Made by a program: the position numbers and the translations under genes
In this document: positions 1 through 56,724 of the stretch, piece by piece
Layout: the number at the start of each line of letters is the position of its first letter
Numbering within the stretch: the first letter of the stretch is position 1
From: an uncultured Eubacterium sp.
GTDB lineage: Bacteria; Bacillota; Clostridia; Lachnospirales; Lachnospiraceae
NCBI GenBank assembly: GCA_945946665.1
Contig: CAMEWO010000010.1
Location: forward strand, 1,781 to 65,780
Length of the DNA stretch: 64,000 bases
Direction: 5' to 3'
The notes under the pieces: generated by a model
What the model saw: the letters and a program-made list of their open reading frames with translations, nothing else
Told to the model about the DNA's origin: nothing
Database searches by the model: none

Positions 1-2388
1 GAAGCAACCGAGCAGGGTGAGTACGTTTCTACCATAAACTGCTTAAAGGAAATCGCTCTACAACAAATGATCCTAACCAAAAAGCAGTACGGCAAAGAGA
101 ACGGATATATTGCTTGGCACGGTTATCAGAGCTTTAAGCCGGATGAGGTTACGGCAAAAGAAGCACACGAAATCGGGTTGCAGACCGCAAGAGAAATGTG
201 GGGTGATCGGTATCAAATAATCGTTACTACCCACCTTGACAAAGACCATCTGCACAATCATTTCTGCTTCAATTCCGTGTCCTTTATTGATGGCGGCAAG
301 TATGTTTACTCGAAAAAAGAATGGTGGAGATTGATGCAAGTGTCTGACCGCATCTCTGCTGAACACGGCTTGTCGGTTATCAAGAACCCACACAAAGCAC
401 CCACAAGACAAGTATGGCTTGATGAGAAAAGCGGTAAATCTACCCGTTACAATGTATACCGTGAGGATGTGCGAGAAGCCATTGATTACAGCCGAAGTCC
501 AAAATATATCGAAGAATATTTGCAGAGAAAAGGATATATTACCGACTTCACGGGTAAGCATTGGAAGATACGATTGTCGCAGTACCAACACTTTACAAGG
601 CTTGATACCCTCGATGAGAGATGGACTCCCGAAAACCTAAAGTGGTCGATTGGCAGATACGCTTCTTTCGGTAGCAGACGGGCATATATCTCTTATCCCA
701 AAGATATGCCGCAGGACTTAAAGGATTGGTTTCAGCCATTCCACCATACAAGCCATATATACCGCTTGTCCCGTGATGACGAGCAGGAAGGCATTTCGGG
801 CAGTATTAAAAATCAGCAATCTATACTTGAGAAGTACGCTAAGGACAATGGCTTTAAGAACGCCCGTGTATTCGTGGATGACGGTTGGTCGGGAACGACT
901 TTCGCAAGACCTGCCTTCACCGAGATAATGGAACTTGCCGAAAAAGGAATGATTGGTACACTTATCGTAAAAGACCATTCCCGTCTTGGTCGTAACCGCT
1001 TGGTTGTCGGTCAGTTGTTGGAAGAAGGCTTTGATAGCTTGGGTGTAAGATATATTGCTATTATGGATAATATCGACACCGCAAAAGGTATCAGCGACCT
1101 TGTTCCAATGCAAGACCTATTCAACGAATGGCACGCTAAAAACACAAGCCAAAAAGTCCGCAACGTTTTCAAAAACAAAGGTATGTCGGGTGTACCGCTT
1201 ACAACAAATCCGCCTTTCGGGTATATGAAAAATCCCGATAACACAAAGGAATGGATTATAGACGAAGAAGCGGCAAAGACCGTCAGACAAATCTTCACCC
1301 TATGTGTTGAAGGACTTGGACCGACACAGATCGCAAAGCGGCTCAAAGCCGCAAAGATGCTGACACCTACGGAATATTGGATTAGCATCGGCAGAAATTG
1401 CAGTAAACCGCCCGCCGTTCCGTATAATTGGTGTTCGGCAACTGTGGCAGATATTCTTTCAAAGCAGGAATACTGCGGAGATACGGTCAACTTCCGAAGC
1501 ACGACAAAATCCTTTAAGAACAAAACGAAAATCGAAAGACCGCAGGAAGAATGGAAAATCTTCCCGAATACTCATCCGGCAATCATTGACCGAGAGGTGT
1601 TTGATTTGGTACAAGAGCTACGGCAACACCGCCGCAGACCTACCAAAAGCGGAATTGTCAGTTGGTTTTCGGGACTTCTCTACTGTGCAGATTGCGGAGA
1701 AAAATTGTATTACAGCGTAACAAACAACTACAAACGGGAGCAAGCGTATTTCTTTTGTTCTTCGTTCCGCAAAAACTCCGATGAATGTTCCGCCCACTAT
1801 ATTCGTGAAAAGGTGGTAATGGAAAATGTATTGGAAAGTATGCGGCGCATCTTACTGAACGTGCAAGCCTTTGAAAAGGAATTTGCCCGTAAACAGATGG
1901 AATGTTACAGTGAGGATAAGAAAAAAGAGCTTGCGGAGAAACGCCGAGAGCTTAGCAAGGCAAAGAAGCGTATCGCAGAGATTGACGGTTTGATACAGAA
2001 ACTCTACGAAGATAACGCTATCGGTAAAATATCCGATGAACGCTATGCCACCTTGTCAATGTCCTACGAGGAAGAACAGCGGGACTTAAAAGCTGCACTT
2101 CCTGATATGGAAACCTATCTCGAATCTGAAACGGACAAGACCGAGAGTTTACAGAGATTTATTGATAAGGTCAAGCGGATAACGGAACTCAAGGAACTGA
2201 CCGCCGAGTTAGTACACGAATTTATTGATAAAATCGTAGTACACGCTCCGAGATACCTTGACGGCAAAAGAGTTCAGCTCATAGATATTAACTACAACGG
2301 CGTTGGCATACTCCGAGAACTCACTCCTGAAGAAATGGAAGAATCGTTCCAAAAGCATATGGCGGAACGCAAAGCAAAAACGGCATAG
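1..2388 (+). CDS. In-frame fusion of MOBP-type relaxase (N-terminal, 5'-truncated by window) and TndX/TnpX-like large serine recombinase with DUF4368-like tail
   Basis: Frame is open from base 1. Relaxase motifs HGYQSF and THLDKDHLHNHFCFNS are followed at ~760 by YRLSRDDE...VDDGWSG (serine recombinase catalytic domain), a recombinase domain and a CADCG..C..C zinc ribbon. Confidence 0.85.
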   Translation, partial: EATEQGEYVSTINCLKEIALQQMILTKKQYGKENGYIAWHGYQSFKPDEVTAKEAHEIGLQTAREMWGDRYQIIVTTHLDKDHLHNHFCFNSVSFIDGGKYVYSKKEWWRLMQVSDRISAEHGLSVIKNPHKAPTRQVWLDEKSGKSTRYNVYREDVREAIDYSRSPKYIEEYLQRKGYITDFTGKHWKIRLSQYQHFTRLDTLDERWTPENLKWSIGRYASFGSRRAYISYPKDMPQDLKDWFQPFHHTSHIYRLSRDDEQEGISGSIKNQQSILEKYAKDNGFKNARVFVDDGWSGTTFARPAFTEIMELAEKGMIGTLIVKDHSRLGRNRLVVGQLLEEGFDSLGVRYIAIMDNIDTAKGISDLVPMQDLFNEWHAKNTSQKVRNVFKNKGMSGVPLTTNPPFGYMKNPDNTKEWIIDEEAAKTVRQIFTLCVEGLGPTQIAKRLKAAKMLTPTEYWISIGRNCSKPPAVPYNWCSATVADILSKQEYCGDTVNFRSTTKSFKNKTKIERPQEEWKIFPNTHPAIIDREVFDLVQELRQHRRRPTKSGIVSWFSGLLYCADCGEKLYYSVTNNYKREQAYFFCSSFRKNSDECSAHYIREKVVMENVLESMRRILLNVQAFEKEFARKQMECYSEDKKKELAEKRRELSKAKKRIAEIDGLIQKLYEDNAIGKISDERYATLSMSYEEEQRDLKAALPDMETYLESETDKTESLQRFIDKVKRITELKELTAELVHEFIDKIVVHAPRYLDGKRVQLIDINYNGVGILRELTPEEMEESFQKHMAERKAKTA

Positions 2389-2970: not shown

Positions 2971-3133
2971 AAAGTTATACCCTTAGTAAATTAGCATAAT
3001 ATTTTGAGAAAAATGGTTAGTGTTTCTGCTCTTTGCTGTCACTTTCGACAGATGATGTAGTGGCAGGCTGAGTCAGAACTTACTGGGGTGGGTGGGGTGT
3101 TCTTGCATTTTTGTTGTTTTGGAAGAGACAGTA

Positions 3134-3630
3134 GTAACTGGCTGAGCAGGATTTAACGGAAGTATGGCCGGTCTGCACCCTTATATAAAAAGTCACATTT
3201 AGAAGAAATCTTAGCGCTGCGGTGTGTATGGATTACACTTCGCCAGCAACTGTACGGATTATGGTAGTCCAGGCTGTACCCTTAAATAGAAAAAAGTCAC
3301 ATTTAGAAGAAATCTTAGTGCTGCGGTGTGTATGGATTACACTTCGCCAACAACTGACCGATTGTTTGAGTCCCGACAGGGGCGAGTTGAAGGGAAGTTG
3401 TTGAAATAAGCGAGTGTAATCCATATACATCGCAACACTTAGATTCTCTTCGTCGTGACTTTTTTCTATTTAAGGGTACAGCCTGGGCTGCCACAATCCG
3501 TGCAGTTGCTGAAATAAGCGAGTGTAAGACATATGCGTCGCAACGCTTAGATTCTCTTCGTCGTTCCAGGAAGGCAGCATATGTAGGTACACACAGGCCA
3601 TACTTCCGTTAATTCATGCCAGCTGGTTAC
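3134..3630. repeat. Giant nested palindromic element B (B-spacer-B-loop-A'-spacer'-A')
   Basis: B units 3187-3245 and 3291-3349; A' units 3403-3464 and 3511-3564; 45-bp spacers 3246-3290 and 3465-3509 complementary with 4 transitions; perfect 17-bp outer IR 3153-3169/3596-3612. Confidence 0.95.
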
Positions 3631-3691
3631 GGCAGGGATTGTCGAAATGACGTAAGGATGTAAGAACATGGGGCGGAAAGTGCGATTGTGC

Positions 3692-3825: not shown

Positions 3826-5937
3826 GTGAAAATAGTTAAATGGATCAATTCTCTTGATGCGAATGAAAAGAAACTTTTATATATGTGCAATACACGTCCT
3901 GTTTTAAAGCCAAGGGCGTTGTATTCTGATGGAACAGGAGATTACAGAATACCTGCGGAGTGTGAACCATGGGATACTGTAAGGCTCAGGCTCAGAACCG
4001 GAAAGTTTAATATTGATAAGGCATATTTGTATGTGGATAATGAAGAATATCCAATGGAGCGTGTTGAATCAGATACCTATTTTGATTACTATGAGGCATC
4101 TGTGGAGGTTGGAGAGGCACCTGTCTCATATTATTTTAAGGTAGTTGGTGCAAAGTCTGTTGTGTATTACTATAACCAGATTGGTGCGGCAAAGGAGCTT
4201 AACCCATATTATAATTTCCAGATTTATCCTGGACACAAGGTTCCAGAATGGATTAAAGGAGCAGTAATCTACCAGATATTTGTGGACAGATTCTGCGACG
4301 GAGATAAATCTAACAATGTGCTGGATGATGAGTATTCTTATATTGGTGAGCATGTTGTACAGGTGCAGGACTGGAACAAATATCCTGCTTCAATGGGTGT
4401 TAGAGAATTTTATGGCGGTGACCTTAAGGGAGTATGGGACCAGCTTGATTATCTGCAGAGTCTGGGCGTGGAGGTTATATATTTTAATCCCCTTTTTGTA
4501 TCTCCATCTAACCACAAATACGATATTCAGGACTATGACTATATTGACCCACACTTTGGAGTTATCGTTGATGATGAGGGTGAACTTCTGGGTGAGGGAG
4601 ATATGGATAATACCCATGCAACAAGATATATTAACAGGGTTACCAACAAGAAGAACCTGGAAGCAAGCAACGCATTTTTTGCAAAGCTTGTGGAGGAAAT
4701 CCACAGAAGAGGCATGAAGGTCATAATTGACGGAGTGTTTAACCACTGTGGTTCCTTTAACAAATGGATGGACAGAGAACATATATACAGCAACAGCAAT
4801 GAGCAGTATGAGGCTGGTGCATATGAAAAATATGAGAGTCCATACCACAGCTTCTTTAAGTTTTATGGAGACCAGTGGCCTGATAATGATTCATACGATG
4901 GATGGTGGGGACATGACACACTTCCTAAACTTAATTATGAGGAGTCAGATAAGCTGGAAGAATATATAATCAACATTGGAAAGAAATGGGTATCTCCTCC
5001 TTACAATGTAGATGGCTGGAGATTAGACGTGGCAGCAGACTTGGGATACAGCCAGGAATATAACCATGAATTCTGGAAGAAGTTCAGAATTGCTGTAAAG
5101 GAGGCAAATCCTGATGCGGTAATTCTTGCTGAGCATTATGGTGACTGTCACAGCTGGCTTAGCGGCGGCGAGTGGGATACTATAATGAATTATGATGCAT
5201 TTATGGAGCCTGTAACATGGTTCCTTACTGGAATGGAGAAACATTCTGATGAATACAGGCATGATATGCTGGGAAATGCAGGTAATTTCTTTGGTGCGAT
5301 GCATCACGGAATGTCAAGGATGGGCAGCCAGGCAGTATATACTTCTATGAATGAACTGTCAAATCATGACCATTCAAGATTCCTTACAAGAACTAACCAT
5401 ATTGTGGGACGTACAGCATCTGTGGGACCACTGCGGGCTTCGGAAAATGTTAATAAGGCCTGCTTTATGGAAGCAGTAGTGATGCAGATGACATGGCCTG
5501 GTGCACCTACAATATATTACGGTGATGAGGCTGGTGTATGTGGCTGGACAGATCCAGACAACAGGCGGACTTATCCGTGGGGACATGAGGATCAGGAACT
5601 GATAAGATTCCATCAGGATATAATAAAACTCCATAAGGAATGCAGTGTGCTGCAAAACGGCTCATACAAGGAACTGGTTTCAGAATATAATCTGCTGGCT
5701 TATGGCAGGTTTGACAGGAATGATATATTAGTTGTTGTTATTAATAATTCAGACGATGAAAGACGTGTATCCATACCAGTGTGGGAGTTAGGTATGCCTA
5801 CGGATACTGATATGGAACAGATATTTGTAACTTATGATGGGGGATACAGCACGCAGAGACTTTATTATTCTGTCAATGACGGATGGATTAGTCTTGGTAT
5901 GAGAAGACATTCCTCTCTTGTGCTTCGCAAAGCGTAG
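3826..5937 (+). CDS. GH13 neopullulanase/cyclomaltodextrinase-like alpha-glycosidase with N-terminal CBM-like domain
   Basis: GH13 regions DGVFNH, GWRLDVA, AEHYG, SNHD; YQIFVDRF and YYGDEAG. Confidence 0.9.
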   Translation: MKIVKWINSLDANEKKLLYMCNTRPVLKPRALYSDGTGDYRIPAECEPWDTVRLRLRTGKFNIDKAYLYVDNEEYPMERVESDTYFDYYEASVEVGEAPVSYYFKVVGAKSVVYYYNQIGAAKELNPYYNFQIYPGHKVPEWIKGAVIYQIFVDRFCDGDKSNNVLDDEYSYIGEHVVQVQDWNKYPASMGVREFYGGDLKGVWDQLDYLQSLGVEVIYFNPLFVSPSNHKYDIQDYDYIDPHFGVIVDDEGELLGEGDMDNTHATRYINRVTNKKNLEASNAFFAKLVEEIHRRGMKVIIDGVFNHCGSFNKWMDREHIYSNSNEQYEAGAYEKYESPYHSFFKFYGDQWPDNDSYDGWWGHDTLPKLNYEESDKLEEYIINIGKKWVSPPYNVDGWRLDVAADLGYSQEYNHEFWKKFRIAVKEANPDAVILAEHYGDCHSWLSGGEWDTIMNYDAFMEPVTWFLTGMEKHSDEYRHDMLGNAGNFFGAMHHGMSRMGSQAVYTSMNELSNHDHSRFLTRTNHIVGRTASVGPLRASENVNKACFMEAVVMQMTWPGAPTIYYGDEAGVCGWTDPDNRRTYPWGHEDQELIRFHQDIIKLHKECSVLQNGSYKELVSEYNLLAYGRFDRNDILVVVINNSDDERRVSIPVWELGMPTDTDMEQIFVTYDGGYSTQRLYYSVNDGWISLGMRRHSSLVLRKA

Positions 5938-5952
5938 AAAGGTGGTAAACAG

Positions 5953-6837
5953 ATGAGTAACGATAAGGAAACAAGACCAGAGATTAAGCTGAACCGTAAG
6001 ATGAGAATGTGGAATAAATACAGAATTTTCTGTATTATTGCAGCTGTAATTCTTGTGGTTGTTATAGTGGTAGTGGCAGCTGTTAAGGGAATTACAGGAG
6101 GTAAGAATAAGCAGGTTGCTGAGAATCCTACCCCAAGCCAGGGACAGAGCCAGACTTATGTGCCTGAGGCAACAACCACGGCAGGTGAAACAACAGGAGC
6201 AGAACAGACAACAAAGCAGGAGGAGACAACAACTACCCAGGCTGCACCATCTGGAAGTGGACTTAAGCTTAGTGGTTCTGCGGAAGCTGAGACATTTACA
6301 AATAAGGATTATTATTCAGATACAGTATTTATGGGAGATTCTGTTATATCAGGTATTGAGAGCTATGGATACCTTAATAATGTTGTGGGAAATGTGAATG
6401 CCACAAGTGGCAAGCTGGAATCTTACGTTAATGAGGCCATGAAATCTAACCCTTCGAAGGTATTTATTATGGTTGGACATAATGATGCCAACTATGGAAC
6501 AATAAAGGAAGAATCTCTTGCTTCTAATATTACTGATATTGTAGCAGCAATTCATAAGAAGAATAGTTCAACCAAGGTATATGTTTTATCAATTACACCA
6601 ATTACATCTGCATATGAGAATAAGTCATCTAATAATGTAAAGCAGTCTTATATTGATAAAGCCAACAGCCTTATTGAGGAGAATGCTTCATCAGGAAAGT
6701 ACACGTATGTAGATGTTGCATCTGCATATAAAGATACTAATGGCTATATGAAAACAGATTGTACAGGTAATGGTATTAACCTTAAGAATAGTTATTATCC
6801 ATTTCTTCTTAATGGCATTGCTGAAGTAGTAAAGTAG
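5953..6837 (+). CDS. Membrane-anchored SGNH/GDSL hydrolase-like protein
   Basis: N-terminal TM helix, T/Q-rich linker, FMGDSV and VGHND blocks. Confidence 0.7.
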   Translation: MSNDKETRPEIKLNRKMRMWNKYRIFCIIAAVILVVVIVVVAAVKGITGGKNKQVAENPTPSQGQSQTYVPEATTTAGETTGAEQTTKQEETTTTQAAPSGSGLKLSGSAEAETFTNKDYYSDTVFMGDSVISGIESYGYLNNVVGNVNATSGKLESYVNEAMKSNPSKVFIMVGHNDANYGTIKEESLASNITDIVAAIHKKNSSTKVYVLSITPITSAYENKSSNNVKQSYIDKANSLIEENASSGKYTYVDVASAYKDTNGYMKTDCTGNGINLKNSYYPFLLNGIAEVVK

Positions 6838-6855
6838 TTTAAGAATGGAGTGACA

Positions 6856-7566
6856 ATGAATTTTCACGTATTAACCCTTTTTCCAGACATGATTACACAG
6901 GGGCTTAACACCAGCATAACAGGAAGGGCTATTGAGAATGGTCTTGTTTCTATAGAGGCAGTTAATATCAGGGATTATTCAACTGATAAGCATCTTAAGG
7001 TGGATGATTATCCATATGGTGGCGGTGCAGGACTGGTTATGAGGGCTGACCCTATATGCAGGGCATATGATGCAGTTGCTTCCAGACTGGATAAGAAGCC
7101 AAGAGTGGTATATATGACTCCCGTAGGATATACATTTAACCAGAACATGGCAAGGGAGTTTGCCCAGGAAGAAGAACTGGTTATTCTCTGCGGACACTAT
7201 GAAGGAGTGGATGAGCGGGCGCTTGAGACAATTGTGACAGATTTCGTCTCTATAGGTGATTATGTGCTGACAGGTGGAGAACTGGCAGCCATGGTAGTTA
7301 TTGATGCGGTGTCACGGCTGGTTCCAGGGGTACTTCATAATGATGAGTCTGCTGTTACAGAGAGCTTTGAGAATGGTCTTCTGGAATATCCACAGTATAC
7401 ACGTCCTGAGGTTTACAATGGAATGGCAGTTCCGGAGGTTCTGCTTTCAGGACACCATGGCAACGTGGATAAATGGCGGTTGGAGCAATCCCTTCAGCGC
7501 ACTAAGAAGTACAGACCAGATCTGTATGAGGCATATATGGAGCGTACTAAGAAAGATAAAGCTTAG
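6856..7566 (+). CDS. trmD: tRNA (guanine37-N1)-methyltransferase
   Basis: VDDYPYGGGAG, LCGHYEGVDER, SIGDYVLTGGE, LEYPQYTRP. Confidence 0.97.
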   Translation: MNFHVLTLFPDMITQGLNTSITGRAIENGLVSIEAVNIRDYSTDKHLKVDDYPYGGGAGLVMRADPICRAYDAVASRLDKKPRVVYMTPVGYTFNQNMAREFAQEEELVILCGHYEGVDERALETIVTDFVSIGDYVLTGGELAAMVVIDAVSRLVPGVLHNDESAVTESFENGLLEYPQYTRPEVYNGMAVPEVLLSGHHGNVDKWRLEQSLQRTKKYRPDLYEAYMERTKKDKA

Positions 7567-7568
7567 AA

Positions 7569-8282
7569 ATGAGGATTAAAATGATTAATTCTTATGTAGC
7601 ATTAGATATTGAGACAACGGGGGTTAATCCTTCCCTTGATAAAATTATTGAAATTGGAATGGCTAAGGTTGTTGACGGAGTAGTGGTTGACAGCTTTAGC
7701 TCTCTTATTGACCCCAGAACTTCCATCAGTTCAAGGATTACAGAACTTACAGGGATTACTGATGAGGATGTGAAGGGAAAACCTGTTATTGACAGTGTTA
7801 TTGGTTATATTGTGGAATTCACGGAAGGGTTTCCTTTGCTGGGACATAACATTATATTTGACTACAGCTTTATAAAGAAGGCTGCTGTCAACAATAAAAT
7901 AGAATTCGAGAGGGATGGGATTGATACCCTGAAGATGTCACGTAGATTGCTTCCTGATATGCCGCACAAGGGACTGGAGTATCTCTGCGGACAGCTGGGA
8001 ATTAATCCGGGACATTCCCACAGGGCATATGATGATGCGCTTAGTGCCATGGAGTTGTATAACAGGCTGTATGATATTAATCCGGAGGATAGCGGGTTTA
8101 TGCAGCCTGTTAAACTTGTGTTTTCTGTTAAGAAGGATACACCTGTTACAGCAGCCCAGATAAGGTATCTGTATGCACTGCTGGCGAAACACAATCTGTC
8201 GGTTGATGAACCGGTTGAAAGTCTTACAAAAAGCAAGGCAAGCAGACTGATTGATCAGATTATTTCCCAGTACGGCAAGTGA
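7569..8282 (+). CDS. DEDDh 3'-5' exonuclease (DnaQ/PolC-epsilon-like)
   Basis: ALDIETTG, GHNIIFD, HRAYDDA. Confidence 0.9.
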   Translation: MRIKMINSYVALDIETTGVNPSLDKIIEIGMAKVVDGVVVDSFSSLIDPRTSISSRITELTGITDEDVKGKPVIDSVIGYIVEFTEGFPLLGHNIIFDYSFIKKAAVNNKIEFERDGIDTLKMSRRLLPDMPHKGLEYLCGQLGINPGHSHRAYDDALSAMELYNRLYDINPEDSGFMQPVKLVFSVKKDTPVTAAQIRYLYALLAKHNLSVDEPVESLTKSKASRLIDQIISQYGK

Positions 8283-8311
8283 GCCCCTCATGTCAGCAGC
8301 ACTTAGTAAAA

Positions 8312-8599
8312 CCTACGATAGGTATGCGTGGATTATGGCAGTTCGACTGTACCCTTAAGTAGAAAAAAGTCACGACGAAGAGAATCTAAGCGTTGCGACG
8401 CATATGAATTACACTCGCTTATTTCGCGACCGCTCTCCAACTCGCCCCTGTCGGGGCTCAAACAATCCGAGCAGTCGCTGGCGAAGTGTAATCCATACAC
8501 GCCGCAGCGCTAAGATTTCTTCTAAATGTGACTTTTTTCTACTTAAGGGTACAGTCAGAGCTGCCGTAATCCACGTATACCTATCTTATGTATCGTAGG
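8312..8599. repeat. Giant palindromic element C (arm-A-loop-B'-arm')
   Basis: 8317-8373 pairs with 8528-8585 (3 transitions, 1 indel); A unit 8364-8425, B' unit 8479-8537. Confidence 0.95.
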
Positions 8600-8879
8600 C
8601 TGTATGTGCGTCTGGCTGCTTACGGGACCTAGGGCTGCTGAACCGGTAAATGCAATTGGGACATTAGAAGAAATCACAAGCGGTGGGGTATGTTGGATTA
8701 CACTTCGCCAGCAATGGGGCAACTGTTTGAAGCCCGTAGGGCTGAGTTTTGAACCATTGCTGAAATAAGCGAGTGTAATTCATACATGCCACAGCGCTGA
8801 TGATTCTCTTCGTAGTTCCAATTGCATTTACCGGTTTAGTAGCCCTAGGTCCCATAAGCAGCCAGACACATATACAGCC
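8598..8879. repeat. Giant palindromic element D (65-bp arms; core is the exact reverse complement of the core of A)
   Basis: 8598-8662 vs 8815-8879, 6 transitions; core 8663-8814 equals the reverse complement of 2675-2826. Confidence 0.95.
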
Positions 8880-54380: not shown

Positions 54381-56147
54381 ATGGTAGATTTTAAGGCGGA
54401 TGAGAACCTTAGCGTTCTCAACCATTCCTGTGCACATCTTATGGCTCAGGCTGTAAAACATCTTTATCCTAATGCAAAGTTCTGGGTAGGACCTGTTGTA
54501 TCCGAAGGGTTTTATTATGATATTGACCTGGGAGATGAGGTAATTAACCAGGATGATATTGCAGCCATCGAGAAAGAGATGAAAAAGGTTGCCAAGGAAG
54601 GCAAGAAGATTATAAGAAGAGAGGTTTCCAAGGCTGAGGCATTGGAGATGTTCAAGGGTGATGAATATAAGCTGGATCTTATATCTAACCTTGAGGATGG
54701 CAATATTACTGTATATGACCAGGGGGACTTCACAGACCTCTGTCGTGGACCTCACGTAGATAATGTTAAGCTTTGCAGACATTTTAAGTTAATTAAGCAT
54801 TCTGGTGTATACTGGAAGGGCGATGCCAATAACCGTGTACTTCAGAGAATTTATGGAGTATGTTTCCCAACAGCAGAGGAGTTGGAGGATCACCTTAAGC
54901 TTCTTGAGGAGGCGAAGGAACGTGACCATAGAAAGATTGGCAAAGATATGCAGCTTTTCATGGTTGATGATCTTATTGGACGAGGACTTCCAATGTTTCT
55001 GCCAAAGGGATATACAATATGGCAGGAGCTGGAGAACTACATTAAGGAGAAGGAGAGAAAGCTTGGCTATCTCCATGTTATGACTCCTTGTGTTGGTACA
55101 GTTAACCTTTATAAGACTTCAGGCCATTGGGATCATTATAAGGAGAATATGTTCCCAGCCATGGAGGTTGAGGGTGAATCATTTGTATTAAGACCAATGA
55201 ACTGCCCACACCACATGATGATATATGCTAACAGAATGCATTCATATAAGGATCTTCCTATAAGAATAGGTGAGATTGCCCATGACTTCAGATTTGAAGC
55301 AAGTGGTACTCTTAAGGGAATTGAGAGAGGACGTCATTTCTGTCAGAATGATGCCCATCTGTTCGTAACTCCTGAGCAGATTGAGGATGAGTTCTCTAAG
55401 GTTGTAGACCTTATATTCCAGACATATAAAGATTTTAATATTACAGATTACCGCTGTGTTCTTTCTCTTAGAGATCCGGCAGATACAACCAAGTATCATC
55501 AGGACGATGAGATGTGGAACAAAGCTGAAGATGCCTTAAGAAAGGTTCTTAATGACCTTGGAATCGAGTATACAGAGGAAATTGGCGAGGCTGCATTCTA
55601 CGGACCTAAGCTTGATGTTAATGTTAAACCTGCTGTTGGTAATGAGTATACACTTTCGACATGCCAGCTTGATTTCTGTCTGCCAGCAAAGTTTAATCTT
55701 ACTTACATTGACAAGGATGGAGAGAAGAAGACACCTGTAGTTCTTCACAGGGCAATTCTTGGTTCTCTTGACAGATTTATGGCGTATATCTTAGAGGAGA
55801 CTAAGGGTAACCTGCCATTATGGCTTGCACCTGTACAGGCAAGGGTTCTTCCTGTTAAGAATGATGATGTGGAATTGTCTGCATATGCTAAGGAAGTATA
55901 TGATATCCTTAATGACAATAACATAAGGGTTGAACTTGACGACCGTTCTGAGAAGCTGGGATACCGTATGCGTGAAGGACAGATTCAGAAAGTTCCATAT
56001 CTTCTGGTTCTTGGTAATAATGAGAAGAATGACAGAACAGTTTCTTTCAGACTGCATGGACAGCAGGAGACTACAACGGTTGGACTTGATGAGTTTGTTG
56101 GAAAGCTTAAGAGGGAAATTGAAACAAAAGGTCATGACGAAAACTAA
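54381..56147 (+). CDS. thrS: Threonine--tRNA ligase, short form without TGS domain
   Basis: HSCAH, DLCRGPH, RDHRKIG, RPMNCP, FYGPK, HRAILGS. Confidence 0.97.
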   Translation: MVDFKADENLSVLNHSCAHLMAQAVKHLYPNAKFWVGPVVSEGFYYDIDLGDEVINQDDIAAIEKEMKKVAKEGKKIIRREVSKAEALEMFKGDEYKLDLISNLEDGNITVYDQGDFTDLCRGPHVDNVKLCRHFKLIKHSGVYWKGDANNRVLQRIYGVCFPTAEELEDHLKLLEEAKERDHRKIGKDMQLFMVDDLIGRGLPMFLPKGYTIWQELENYIKEKERKLGYLHVMTPCVGTVNLYKTSGHWDHYKENMFPAMEVEGESFVLRPMNCPHHMMIYANRMHSYKDLPIRIGEIAHDFRFEASGTLKGIERGRHFCQNDAHLFVTPEQIEDEFSKVVDLIFQTYKDFNITDYRCVLSLRDPADTTKYHQDDEMWNKAEDALRKVLNDLGIEYTEEIGEAAFYGPKLDVNVKPAVGNEYTLSTCQLDFCLPAKFNLTYIDKDGEKKTPVVLHRAILGSLDRFMAYILEETKGNLPLWLAPVQARVLPVKNDDVELSAYAKEVYDILNDNNIRVELDDRSEKLGYRMREGQIQKVPYLLVLGNNEKNDRTVSFRLHGQQETTTVGLDEFVGKLKREIETKGHDEN

Positions 56148-56724
56148 ATTATAAAGCAAGTGCAGTGGTTGTTGGTGGAAAACTGACAACCACTGATTTT
56201 TTTGACTAAAGGACGCATGGTACCTGCATACTTAAATTGAAAAAGTCACTACGAAGAGAATCTAAGTGTTGCGACATATATGAATTACACTCGCTTATTT
56301 CAGCAACTGTTTTCACTATGGCGATTTGGGCCACACACTTGAATAAAAAAAGTCACTACGAAGAGAATCTAAGTGTTGCGACATATATGAATTACACTCG
56401 CTTATTTCAACAACTGCCCGACAACTCGCCCCTGTTCGGGGCTCAGACATTCGTGCAGTTGTTGGCGAAGTGTAATCCATACACGCCGCAACACTAAGAT
56501 TTCTTCTAATGTGACTTTTTTTATTCAAGTGTGTGGCCCAAATCACCATAGTGAAGGCAGTTGTTGGCGAAGTGTAATCCATACACGCCGCAGCGCTAAG
56601 ATTTCTTCTAATGTGACTTTTTCAATTTAAGTGTGCAGGTACTATGCTGTTTATTCTGGAAAAATTAGTGGTTGTCAGTTTTTCTCAGTAGCCCTTATTT
56701 GGTTTATAATTTAGTTTTCTTCAT
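56134..56724. repeat. Giant nested palindromic element E (A-spacer-A-loop-B'-spacer'-B'), arms extending into the thrS 3' end
   Basis: A units 56240-56301 and 56347-56408; B' units 56463-56520 and 56565-56622; outer IRs 56215-56249/56613-56647, 56177-56201/56660-56684, 56134-56155/56703-56724. Confidence 0.95.
56163..56203 (+). terminator. thrS intrinsic terminator
   Basis: cagtggttgttggt-ggaaa-actgacaaccactg followed by a and T7. Confidence 0.75.

Follow-up and report, generated by a model that had tools for sequence, protein, structure and literature searches.

The stretch of DNA analyzed here (the window) comprises 64,000 nucleotides from an uncultured Eubacterium sp. of the Lachnospiraceae. 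Its own genome, G000, amounts to 2.45 Mb in 48 contigs, with a G+C content of 38% and a completeness of 99.95%. At positions 3134–3630 of the window (C10:4914-5410 in G000), upstream of an alpha-amylase gene, lies locus B, a long hairpin on the + strand that is a two-tier member of a repeat family. The amylase, GDSL lipase, trmD and exonuclease genes that adjoin it keep their order across the genus, including in relatives without the family, which shows that the hairpins mark no mobile cassette. Coordinates are window positions except where a contig is named, and G019 denotes the metagenome-assembled genome (MAG) of a sister species.

Anchored arm-to-arm alignment resolves locus B into the order S0-B1-S1-B2-apex-A'2-S1'-A'1-S0', all read on the + strand. 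The outer left stem S0 (3146–3186) is S1-like, ends inward in an S-type terminus (an A-run, then GTCAC), and is 80% complementary to the outer right stem S0' (3579–3619); this extra stem lies beyond the span covered by an earlier, sequence-only reading of the same DNA. The two left core arms of B type, B1 (3187–3252) and B2 (3291–3356), are 97% identical at a spacing of 104 nt and have a rare GGTG variant in common. Between them, the connector S1 (3253–3290), an inverted repeat homologous to the S modules of other loci, runs on into an A-run and GTCAC at 3291–3300. The apex module (3357–3395) is of type 1, with a conserved internal loop, a CCC/GGG mini-hairpin and a variable tip, as defined by an apex comparison over 41 loci and a consensus fold. 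On the right side follow the inner core arm A'2 (3396–3456), of A' type and with a conserved 7-nt bulge GAAATAA, the connector S1' (3457–3503), which is the complement of S1 and holds no remnant of any apex right half, and the outer core arm A'1 (3504–3564), 90% identical to A'2 at a spacing of 108 nt. From the fold and the sequence, an unpaired linker (3565–3578) that starts with the GGAAC-type end TCC joins A'1 to S0'.

The two connectors lie within a 57-nt inverted repeat (3244–3300 and 3455–3511) that is 93% complementary, and the four mismatches between S1 and S1' are all transitions, read on the + strand as three G-T pairs and one A-C pair. The region 3120–3640 folds as a single hairpin of ~500 nt at –290 kcal/mol on the + strand and –261 kcal/mol on the – strand, a difference of 29 kcal/mol, in comparison with –144 ± 6 kcal/mol for shuffled sequences (z = –23.7). 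B1 pairs poorly with A'1 in this fold. The sequence-only reading had described one element nested in the apical stem of another, with a left-hand period of 104 and complementary S1 arms differing by four transitions, and every repeat was recovered where it had placed it. Its comparison of the segment 3253–3502 with the stand-alone locus C was also borne out, at 87% identity. Its statement that removal of this segment leaves a simple element was not: B1 would abut A'1 without a loop, whereas one-tier members all have an apex module of 52–57 nt.

Locus B occurs in runs that are pig-gut metagenomes. The nested allele is matched at 99.6% by a metagenome contig of another sample from 3292 onward, and two independent pig-gut runs yielded contigs over 3193–3298, 3289–3451 and 3457–3559 with zero differences. 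These matches from other samples rule out an assembly artefact. Across four runs, we saw no reads that skip 3253–3502; a single reported read joint from 2896 to 3274 matches the junction between loci C and D, and thus belongs to another locus.

The family has 41 loci in G000, each a long hairpin of 220–630 nt built around a conserved asymmetric core of ~150 nt, which consists of a B arm of ~55 nt, an apex of 52–57 nt and an A' arm of ~61 nt. The arms are not plain complements of each other, since they are set apart in 47 of 50 units by several G-T positions and by a 1-versus-7 internal loop (C facing GAAATAA). The apexes fall into a few types; in each, a conserved internal loop surrounds a short CCCC/GGGG stem whose tip is variable. 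The terminus of a core is either GGAAC or of S type, and the latter extends outward as a conserved module of 45–49 nt. The S spacer is a module of the family itself and not sequence derived from a target. Beyond the core, each locus has outer arms of 60–190 nt whose sole match in the genome is their own inverted partner, at 80–99% identity. All B units have their A' partner inside their own hairpin, and no B...A' pair is split around a gene. As many as 34 of the 42 G000 loci with ungapped inverted-repeat arms of at least 30 nt are family loci, and two more are family footprints, which ties palindrome growth to the family rather than to a genome-wide habit. As the copies are not independent of one another, counts over the family overstate their statistical support.

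The window itself contains four further members. Locus A (2531–2970, – strand) is a one-tier member of subfamily 2 with 145-nt outer arms and forms a (–)(+) pair with locus B. Locus C (8317–8585, – strand) stands alone, has a single tier flanked by S modules and is built like the inner part of locus B; the element is absent from the corresponding site in G019. Locus D (8598–8879, + strand) is a one-tier member of subfamily 2 whose core is identical to that of locus A, and locus E (56134–56724, – strand) is the second two-tier member of the window.

Among 51 genomes of the genus, we found the family only in G000 and in G019, whose genes share ~95% identity with their G000 counterparts. The core was also sought by exact pattern in one genome for each of 185,579 species, a scan that may leave out records of G000 itself; it returned a single MAG labelled uncultured Eubacterium sp., presumably G019 to judge by the contig numbers of its loci, which match. 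Plasmid and phage collections gave no match. The whole window gave no Rfam matches at the gathering threshold; at E ≤ 1, the sole match was a microRNA-precursor family with 27 bits against a gathering score of 129, which we attribute to chance. The family is young, non-coding and limited to two sister species.

By crude long-ORF gene calls, the A' side of approximately 35 of the 41 loci faces a gene that is transcribed toward the element and whose 3' end is no more than ~65 nt away; the A' side often overlaps this end. All 10 adjacent element pairs are arranged (–)(+), because where two genes converge, each is accompanied by an element of its own. Locus B, upstream of a gene, is exceptional in this respect. 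The outer arms do not behave as terminator stems, with a T-run after 0 of 37 hairpins, and a promoter scan gave only weak matches, which face inward and have mirror images within the palindrome.

The outer arms overlap gene ends at several loci, and locus E illustrates how they arise. There, the segment 56134–56201, which comprises the final thrS codons and the 3' half of the gene's terminator, recurs inverted at 56660–56724. The thrS end must be the original and the far-side arm the copy. The palindromes thus lengthen outward by inverted duplication of flanking DNA, giving locus-unique arms that decay neutrally. Over 33 loci, the outer-arm mismatches comprise 80 G-T, 102 A-C and 116 transversions, with neither a strand bias nor an excess of wobble pairs, and complementarity ranges from 99% down to 80%, as fits a start as a perfect palindrome followed by decay. 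Arms that decay neutrally and sometimes copy the end of a neighboring gene are DNA palindromes, not RNA helices.

The cores are under a different constraint. In 38 aligned inner cores, the strand that runs from B to A' has 1841 Watson-Crick, 136 G-U, 5 A-C and 24 other pairs. Four positions inherited within the family account for ~99 of the G-U pairs, and the bias also holds at the remaining positions. This excess of G-U on one strand indicates that the core is constrained as a one-strand hairpin, in single-stranded DNA or RNA. The G-U strand is antisense to the transcript of the adjacent gene. Metatranscriptome contigs cover the core, with a core/unique depth ratio of ~22 in the RNA run versus 40–57 in DNA runs; as the ratio is no higher than in DNA, the metatranscriptome is uninformative on expression.

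We cataloged nesting over the family loci of G000. Seven loci are intact two-tier nests (C1:212827, C3:90966, C7:8696, C10:4914, which is locus B, C10:57914, which is locus E, C16:9296 and C26:14402), and two more are two-tier with converted outer units (C16:14229 and C16:14660). Two others are lopsided, and each retains a stub of the lost arm: at C2:140380 the right outer arm is cut short, and at C26:14900 the left outer arm is down to ~14 nt, in G019 as well. Stubs of outer units alone occur on C22 (16–17 nt, both sides) and at C5:50469 (~32 nt, seen on the left arm), and third-tier stubs are present at C1:212827, C3:90966 and C26:14900. None of the cataloged loci is a pure one-arm expansion; nine nests are symmetric and two lopsided. 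The sequence-only reading had proposed this count as a check on its contention that both arms expand together, and symmetric expansion prevails.

All inner units are S-flanked, and the tiers are co-oriented in 7 of 7 nests with intact B and A' outer arms. Host and insert can be of different kinds. At C2:140469, an S-flanked subfamily-1 unit sits inside a subfamily-2 unit, and at C7:8696, such a unit sits inside a GGAAC-ended unit with unique arms. At the junctions of locus B, S1 follows directly on the CAACTG that ends B1, and the CAGTTG of A'1 follows directly on S1'. The target duplication that the same reading had suggested looking for is missing: the nest junctions show neither a direct repeat nor a remnant of an apex right half, from which it follows that the old apex was replaced and that the borders of the new segment lie in sequence common to host and insert. 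By eye, the outer 20–24 nt of S may resemble the left half of a type-1 apex (~14 of 24 positions); S' is complementary to S and does not represent the right half of an apex.

Kinship between tiers is variable. Units of different loci are 86% identical on average, while the tiers of locus B are 93% identical, the inner unit ranking 5th of 46 among relatives of the outer one. The inner unit is the nearest relative of the outer unit in three nests and ranks 1st to 5th of 46 in five of seven; in two nests, the tiers are unrelated (ranks 18th and 40th of 46). At locus B, the near-identical B arms, 90% identical A' arms and S modules only ~75% alike (S0 against S1) look like the outcome of later conversion between direct repeats, not of a clean duplication. 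Homology across whole two-tier loci was also considered as proof of a two-tier master copy, and is uninformative, as every tier is homologous to every other.

The sister lineage supplies simpler alleles at the same sites. The G019 MAG is 77% complete and its contigs are interrupted at the elements, so its single-tier alleles are read from contig ends at the apex. At locus B, the orthologue of A'1, recognized by the shared unusual variant ATGCGTCGC, is joined straight to a complete type-2 apex, both at the end of G019 contig C137 and in an independent metagenome contig (L064). A'1 is the only part of locus B with a clear sister orthologue: S0' has no homologue at its position, where the sister lineage has an unrelated right outer stem, and the amylase leader is conserved in both. 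The left half of this allele was not found in the 77%-complete MAG. At C16:9296, a type-2 apex is where two contig ends of G019 meet; together they read S0-B-apex-A', between flanks that in G000 enclose two tiers and a type-1 apex. The apex type of these single-tier alleles differs from that of G000, which means that a simple loss of the G000 inner unit would not produce them. At C3:90966, G019 has two contig paths, an arms-only hairpin and a simple GGAAC-ended element in opposite orientation, and G000 has a two-tier S-type nest within the same outermost arms. For the nests C1:212827 and C7:8696, the G019 contigs stop short of the elements.

Three sites that are filled in G019 were candidates for virgin empty sites in G000 (C20:18101, C9:34033 and C1:387082). 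They are deletions between direct repeats of 3–5 nt (GCG, TCTAA, CGCC); G000 keeps the long arms at all of them and core fragments at two.

A simpler allele at the site, which the sequence-only reading had suggested seeking, thus exists as a single tier in the sister lineage. Since no outgroup carries the family, gain in G000 is the more parsimonious, rather than a proven, direction. On this polarity, the inner copy of locus B was probably acquired at the tip of an older copy after the split from the single-tier sister lineage. The proposal that new copies go to the apex of old ones stands in part. It fits the single-tier sister alleles at locus B and C16:9296, the nests of mixed kind and the symmetric gain. 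Insertion into the old apex does not fit, as the apex was replaced and not split, there is no target-site duplication, and the flanks of the insert are inverted complements. The other origin considered in that reading, one arm templated on the other, is not supported: it would erase the B-versus-A' asymmetry, which seven nests keep and which is lost, wholly or in part, in only three older loci.

Orthologous alleles differ in their tiers, and the old apex has disappeared. To explain both, we favor, at a probability of about 50%, the reading that an S-flanked copy replaced the resident apex through homology-guided copying among members of the family, in a host that lacks SbcCD. Breakage or stalled replication at the tip of an extruded hairpin would start repair, with a different family member or the sister chromosome as the template. 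Homology would come from the two core arms (B and A'), from the CAACTG/CAGTTG end of the stem and from the beginning of S, which is apex-like. A complete S-B-apex-A'-S' copy of ~250 bp would thereby take the place of the resident apex in the same orientation, both arms gaining one unit in a single event, and intrastrand template switching would then perfect the pairing. Such copying would account for the missing target duplication, the borders in shared sequence, the common orientation that homology forces on the tiers, the variable lengths of the stubs and the lack of a transposase gene. Against it, it explains neither the first nest nor the arrival of the family at 41 unrelated sites, and neither an intermediate nor the event has been observed. 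The orientation fixed relative to genes and the one-strand constraint on the core suggest a strand-specific machinery or function outside the model, and the frequent close kinship of inner and outer units fits local duplication too.

The host background was assessed by searches for genes of palindrome processing and of mobility. SbcC and SbcD (profiles SbcD_C and SbcC_Walker_B) were undetected in the 99.95%-complete G000, and SbcC was undetected in G019 and in the three nearest relatives (G005, G018 and G020); among 50 other genomes of the genus, 37 have SbcC. Relatives without the family also lack SbcCD, whose absence is hence permissive at most. In Escherichia coli without SbcCD and RecA, palindrome-centered inverted duplications form (PMC3315005), and template switching makes and perfects hairpin stems (PMC8794818). 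By analogy, the same processes may act on the G000 family. A six-frame search of G000 for the Y1/RAYT transposase (PF01797) gave no match, with 6 of 14 control genomes positive, and neither TnpB nor a reverse transcriptase was found in G000. A single IS110 copy lies far from all elements.

The chief rival is true transposition. A trans-acting enzyme, perhaps a structure-specific or single-strand DNA transposase or recombinase, possibly from an element since lost, would excise or copy S-flanked units and put them into the tips of DNA hairpins, resident apexes included, in a fixed orientation. We take this rival seriously but consider it less likely than homology-guided copying. Dispersal over 41 unrelated sites and the S flanks of every inner unit are as such an enzyme would leave them, and the asymmetric bulges and apex motif persist in 47 of 50 units despite arm-to-arm conversion. 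The one-strand pairing of the core (136 G-U versus 5 A-C) is expected from recognition of a single-stranded hairpin, and the orientation fixed relative to neighboring genes also fits. At C3:90966, moreover, the tip of the same outer hairpin holds different, oppositely oriented members in G000 and G019. However, the nests show no target-site duplication and retain no halves of the old apex, and the ends of the copied unit vary, with outer stubs of 0, 5, 16 or 32 nt. The genome offers no Y1/RAYT, TnpB or reverse transcriptase, its IS110 copy is not near the elements, and no plasmid or phage relative was found.

Local symmetric duplication, in which S+B and A'+S' were each doubled in place by self-nesting or by CAACTG-guided paired slippage, with no part played by a second family member, appears unlikely to us. 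The 97% identity of B1 and B2 with their common rare variant would suit it, as would inner units among the top 5 of 46 relatives of the outer unit in five of seven nests and locus-specific variants common to S0 and S1 at C1:212827 and C16:9296. Yet A'1 and A'2 are only 90% identical and S0 and S1 ~75%, which makes the likeness of B1 and B2 look like later conversion, and the nests C2:140469, C7:8696 and C3:90966 join unrelated units (ranks 18th and 40th of 46). Slippage would also have to occur twice, independently and with identical boundaries, at each of nine loci, and the different apex type of the sister single-tier alleles means that more than duplication separates the alleles.

Finally, we deem it very improbable that the hairpins are a structured RNA or a 3'-end RNA module of the neighboring gene with the extra tiers as functional helix extensions: the nearly exclusive G-U among non-Watson-Crick core pairs, the better fold of the + strand (by 29 kcal/mol), the abutment on gene 3' ends in fixed orientation and the family words in metatranscriptome contigs would agree with it, but the G-U strand is antisense to the adjacent transcript, the outer arms lack a G-U bias and have as many transversions as either class of transition, Rfam has no match, the family occurs in two species only with tiers and arms that differ between orthologous sites, and the RNA-run depth ratio (~22) does not rise above that of the DNA runs (40–57).

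Homology-guided copying, the reading we prefer, could be part of a wider scheme that we put forward with considerable reserve, in which the family multiplies and grows without any transposase: after SbcCD loss, hairpin tips would be points of breakage or stalling, their repair from other family members would replace the apex and add inner tiers, and fold-back copying would capture flanks. If this is true, the palindromes are self-propagating and self-enlarging, driven by host replication and repair only. Long palindromes are regarded as poorly tolerated in bacteria, and their growth has mostly been studied on engineered constructs in nuclease mutants. The G000 lineage is an apparent natural case, with 41 palindromes of 220–630 bp that capture neighboring DNA including gene ends, some of them two tiers deep with alleles that differ between sister species. 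How hairpin repeats spread without a detectable transposase gene, whether SbcCD loss admits them and how they reshape gene 3' ends all become testable in a real genome.

Palindrome-centered inverted duplication and template switching are a process, not a family; they copy flanking DNA as reverse complement around a palindrome, even and lengthen its arms and are favored without SbcCD (PMC3315005, PMC8794818, PMC13100816). This process is matched by the arms unique to each locus, by the thrS end copied in inverted form and by three loci whose arms have been homogenized; these three are C16:14660, C16:14229 and C3:90966, whose outer units have lost their B/A' asymmetry, whole or in part, through arm-to-arm conversion. 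In contrast to the G000 family, where repeated events on a natural set of 41 members and 60–190 nt per arm are needed, descriptions of the process concern engineered palindromes or switches a few bases long, and alone it gives no same-sense doubling of B and A' units. Integron attC sites are imperfect palindromes at gene 3' ends in fixed orientation, of which one strand is recognized as a hairpin through its unpaired bases. The G000 elements are likewise palindromic and in fixed orientation at gene 3' ends, but they are spread over at least 20 contigs beside housekeeping genes such as thrS, which argues against a cassette array.

Bacterial MITEs (Correia, RUP, bcr1, ERIC) are, like the G000 elements, small, non-autonomous, built on inverted repeats and able to land in one another. 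Nested MITEs are known, and ERIC and BOX have longer forms made by extra internal modules. The G000 family differs from MITEs in having no direct target duplications, fixed termini or parent IS with the same ends, and in an insert that replaces rather than splits the host apex and always takes its orientation. Flanks are inverted complements at every locus, as at the nest junctions. The REPIN and REP-BIME repeats mobilized by RAYT (PMC3116915, PMC3337134) come close in other ways, being non-coding extragenic hairpin repeats in tens of copies, mostly between convergent genes, vertically inherited in a narrow lineage and of modular mosaic build. Unlike their carriers, G000 has no RAYT or Y1 transposase gene. 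Its units are 150–250 nt and its hairpins 220–630 nt long, versus ~35–100 nt for a REP or REPIN, with asymmetric arm units of 55–65 nt versus REPs of 20–40 nt, outer arms of locus-unique captured flank, and nesting that affects the two arms symmetrically. The literature searched yielded no symmetric, same-sense nest that replaces the apex in palindromes this large. Lacking the RAYT, the target duplication and the parent element that define REP/REPIN and MITE repeats, the family nevertheless works as they do.

Family elements and their arms-only counterparts share outer arms at several matched sites in the window's own genome (G000) and in the sister species that also carries the palindromes (G019). 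Comparison of position C3:90966-91599 in G000 with L097 and L098 in G019 shows the same outermost arms enclosing three alleles: the arms only, a simple GGAAC-ended element, and an S-type nest of two core units oriented opposite to the GGAAC-ended element. The two contig paths of the G019 assembly at this site suggest a mixture of strains. At three further G000 sites, C20:18040-18165, C9:33970-34100 and C1:387020-387150, G019 has a full element (L057, L053 and L056) while G000 has none, retaining only the long outer arms, with a core fragment of 16–25 nt still present at two of the three. Each of these emptied sites arose when the DNA lying between two short direct repeats was deleted (GCG, TCTAA, CGCC), and arms-only hairpins were left behind. 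A few other long hairpins in G000 also lack the family core (C7:11366-11511, with 66-bp arms and a 14-nt loop, C1:318283-318455 and C19:639-767), and may be additional arms-only remnants.

Several of the five family elements inside the window provide further examples of change in cores and arms. The core of locus A (2531-2970; core 2675-2826) is identical to that of locus D (8598-8879; core 8663-8814), which lies inverted 6 kb away. Their outer arms share about 78% identity over only ∼65 nt, with the remainder not shared, yet at each locus the arms maintain complementarity to their own partners. This combination of identical cores and differing arms suggests either a recent core conversion or a concerted change of both arms. 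Locus C (8317-8585) is located within the left arm of hairpin D in G000, but is not present in G019 at the site matching window 8283-8600 (L041, at the end of contig C137), where the left arm of hairpin D begins right after the exonuclease gene stop codon. At locus E (56134-56724), the final codons of thrS and the 3′ half of its terminator occur as an inverted duplicate on the opposite side of the element (56134-56201 versus 56660-56724). The inverted copy carries GAA, the reading found in the thrS of relatives, in place of GAC in the present gene.

At about 35 of the 41 G000 elements, a gene running toward the element has its 3′ end no more than ∼65 nt from the A′ side, which often overlaps that end. 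The strand that carries the G-U pairs is antisense to that gene. All 10 adjacent pairs are arranged (−)(+), each at convergent genes with one element apiece. In the window, the gene order alpha-amylase, GDSL lipase, trmD, DEDDh exonuclease (3826-8282), downstream of locus B (3134-3630), is conserved in many hairpin-free genomes of the genus. The exonuclease gene is separated from the next convergent gene by ∼660 nt in G000, in contrast to ∼10 nt in G005, G018 and G020, its three closest relatives. A single 773-residue reading frame in the window (67-2388) encodes both a MobA/VirD2 relaxase domain and a large serine recombinase, the latter with Resolvase, Recombinase, zinc ribbon and DUF4368 domains.

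Neither subunit of the hairpin-cutting nuclease SbcCD was detectable across the whole G000 genome, and SbcC was also undetected in G019 and the three closest relatives, while it was found in 37 of the 50 other genus genomes. Loss of this nuclease may be what allows palindromes of 220–630 bp to persist.
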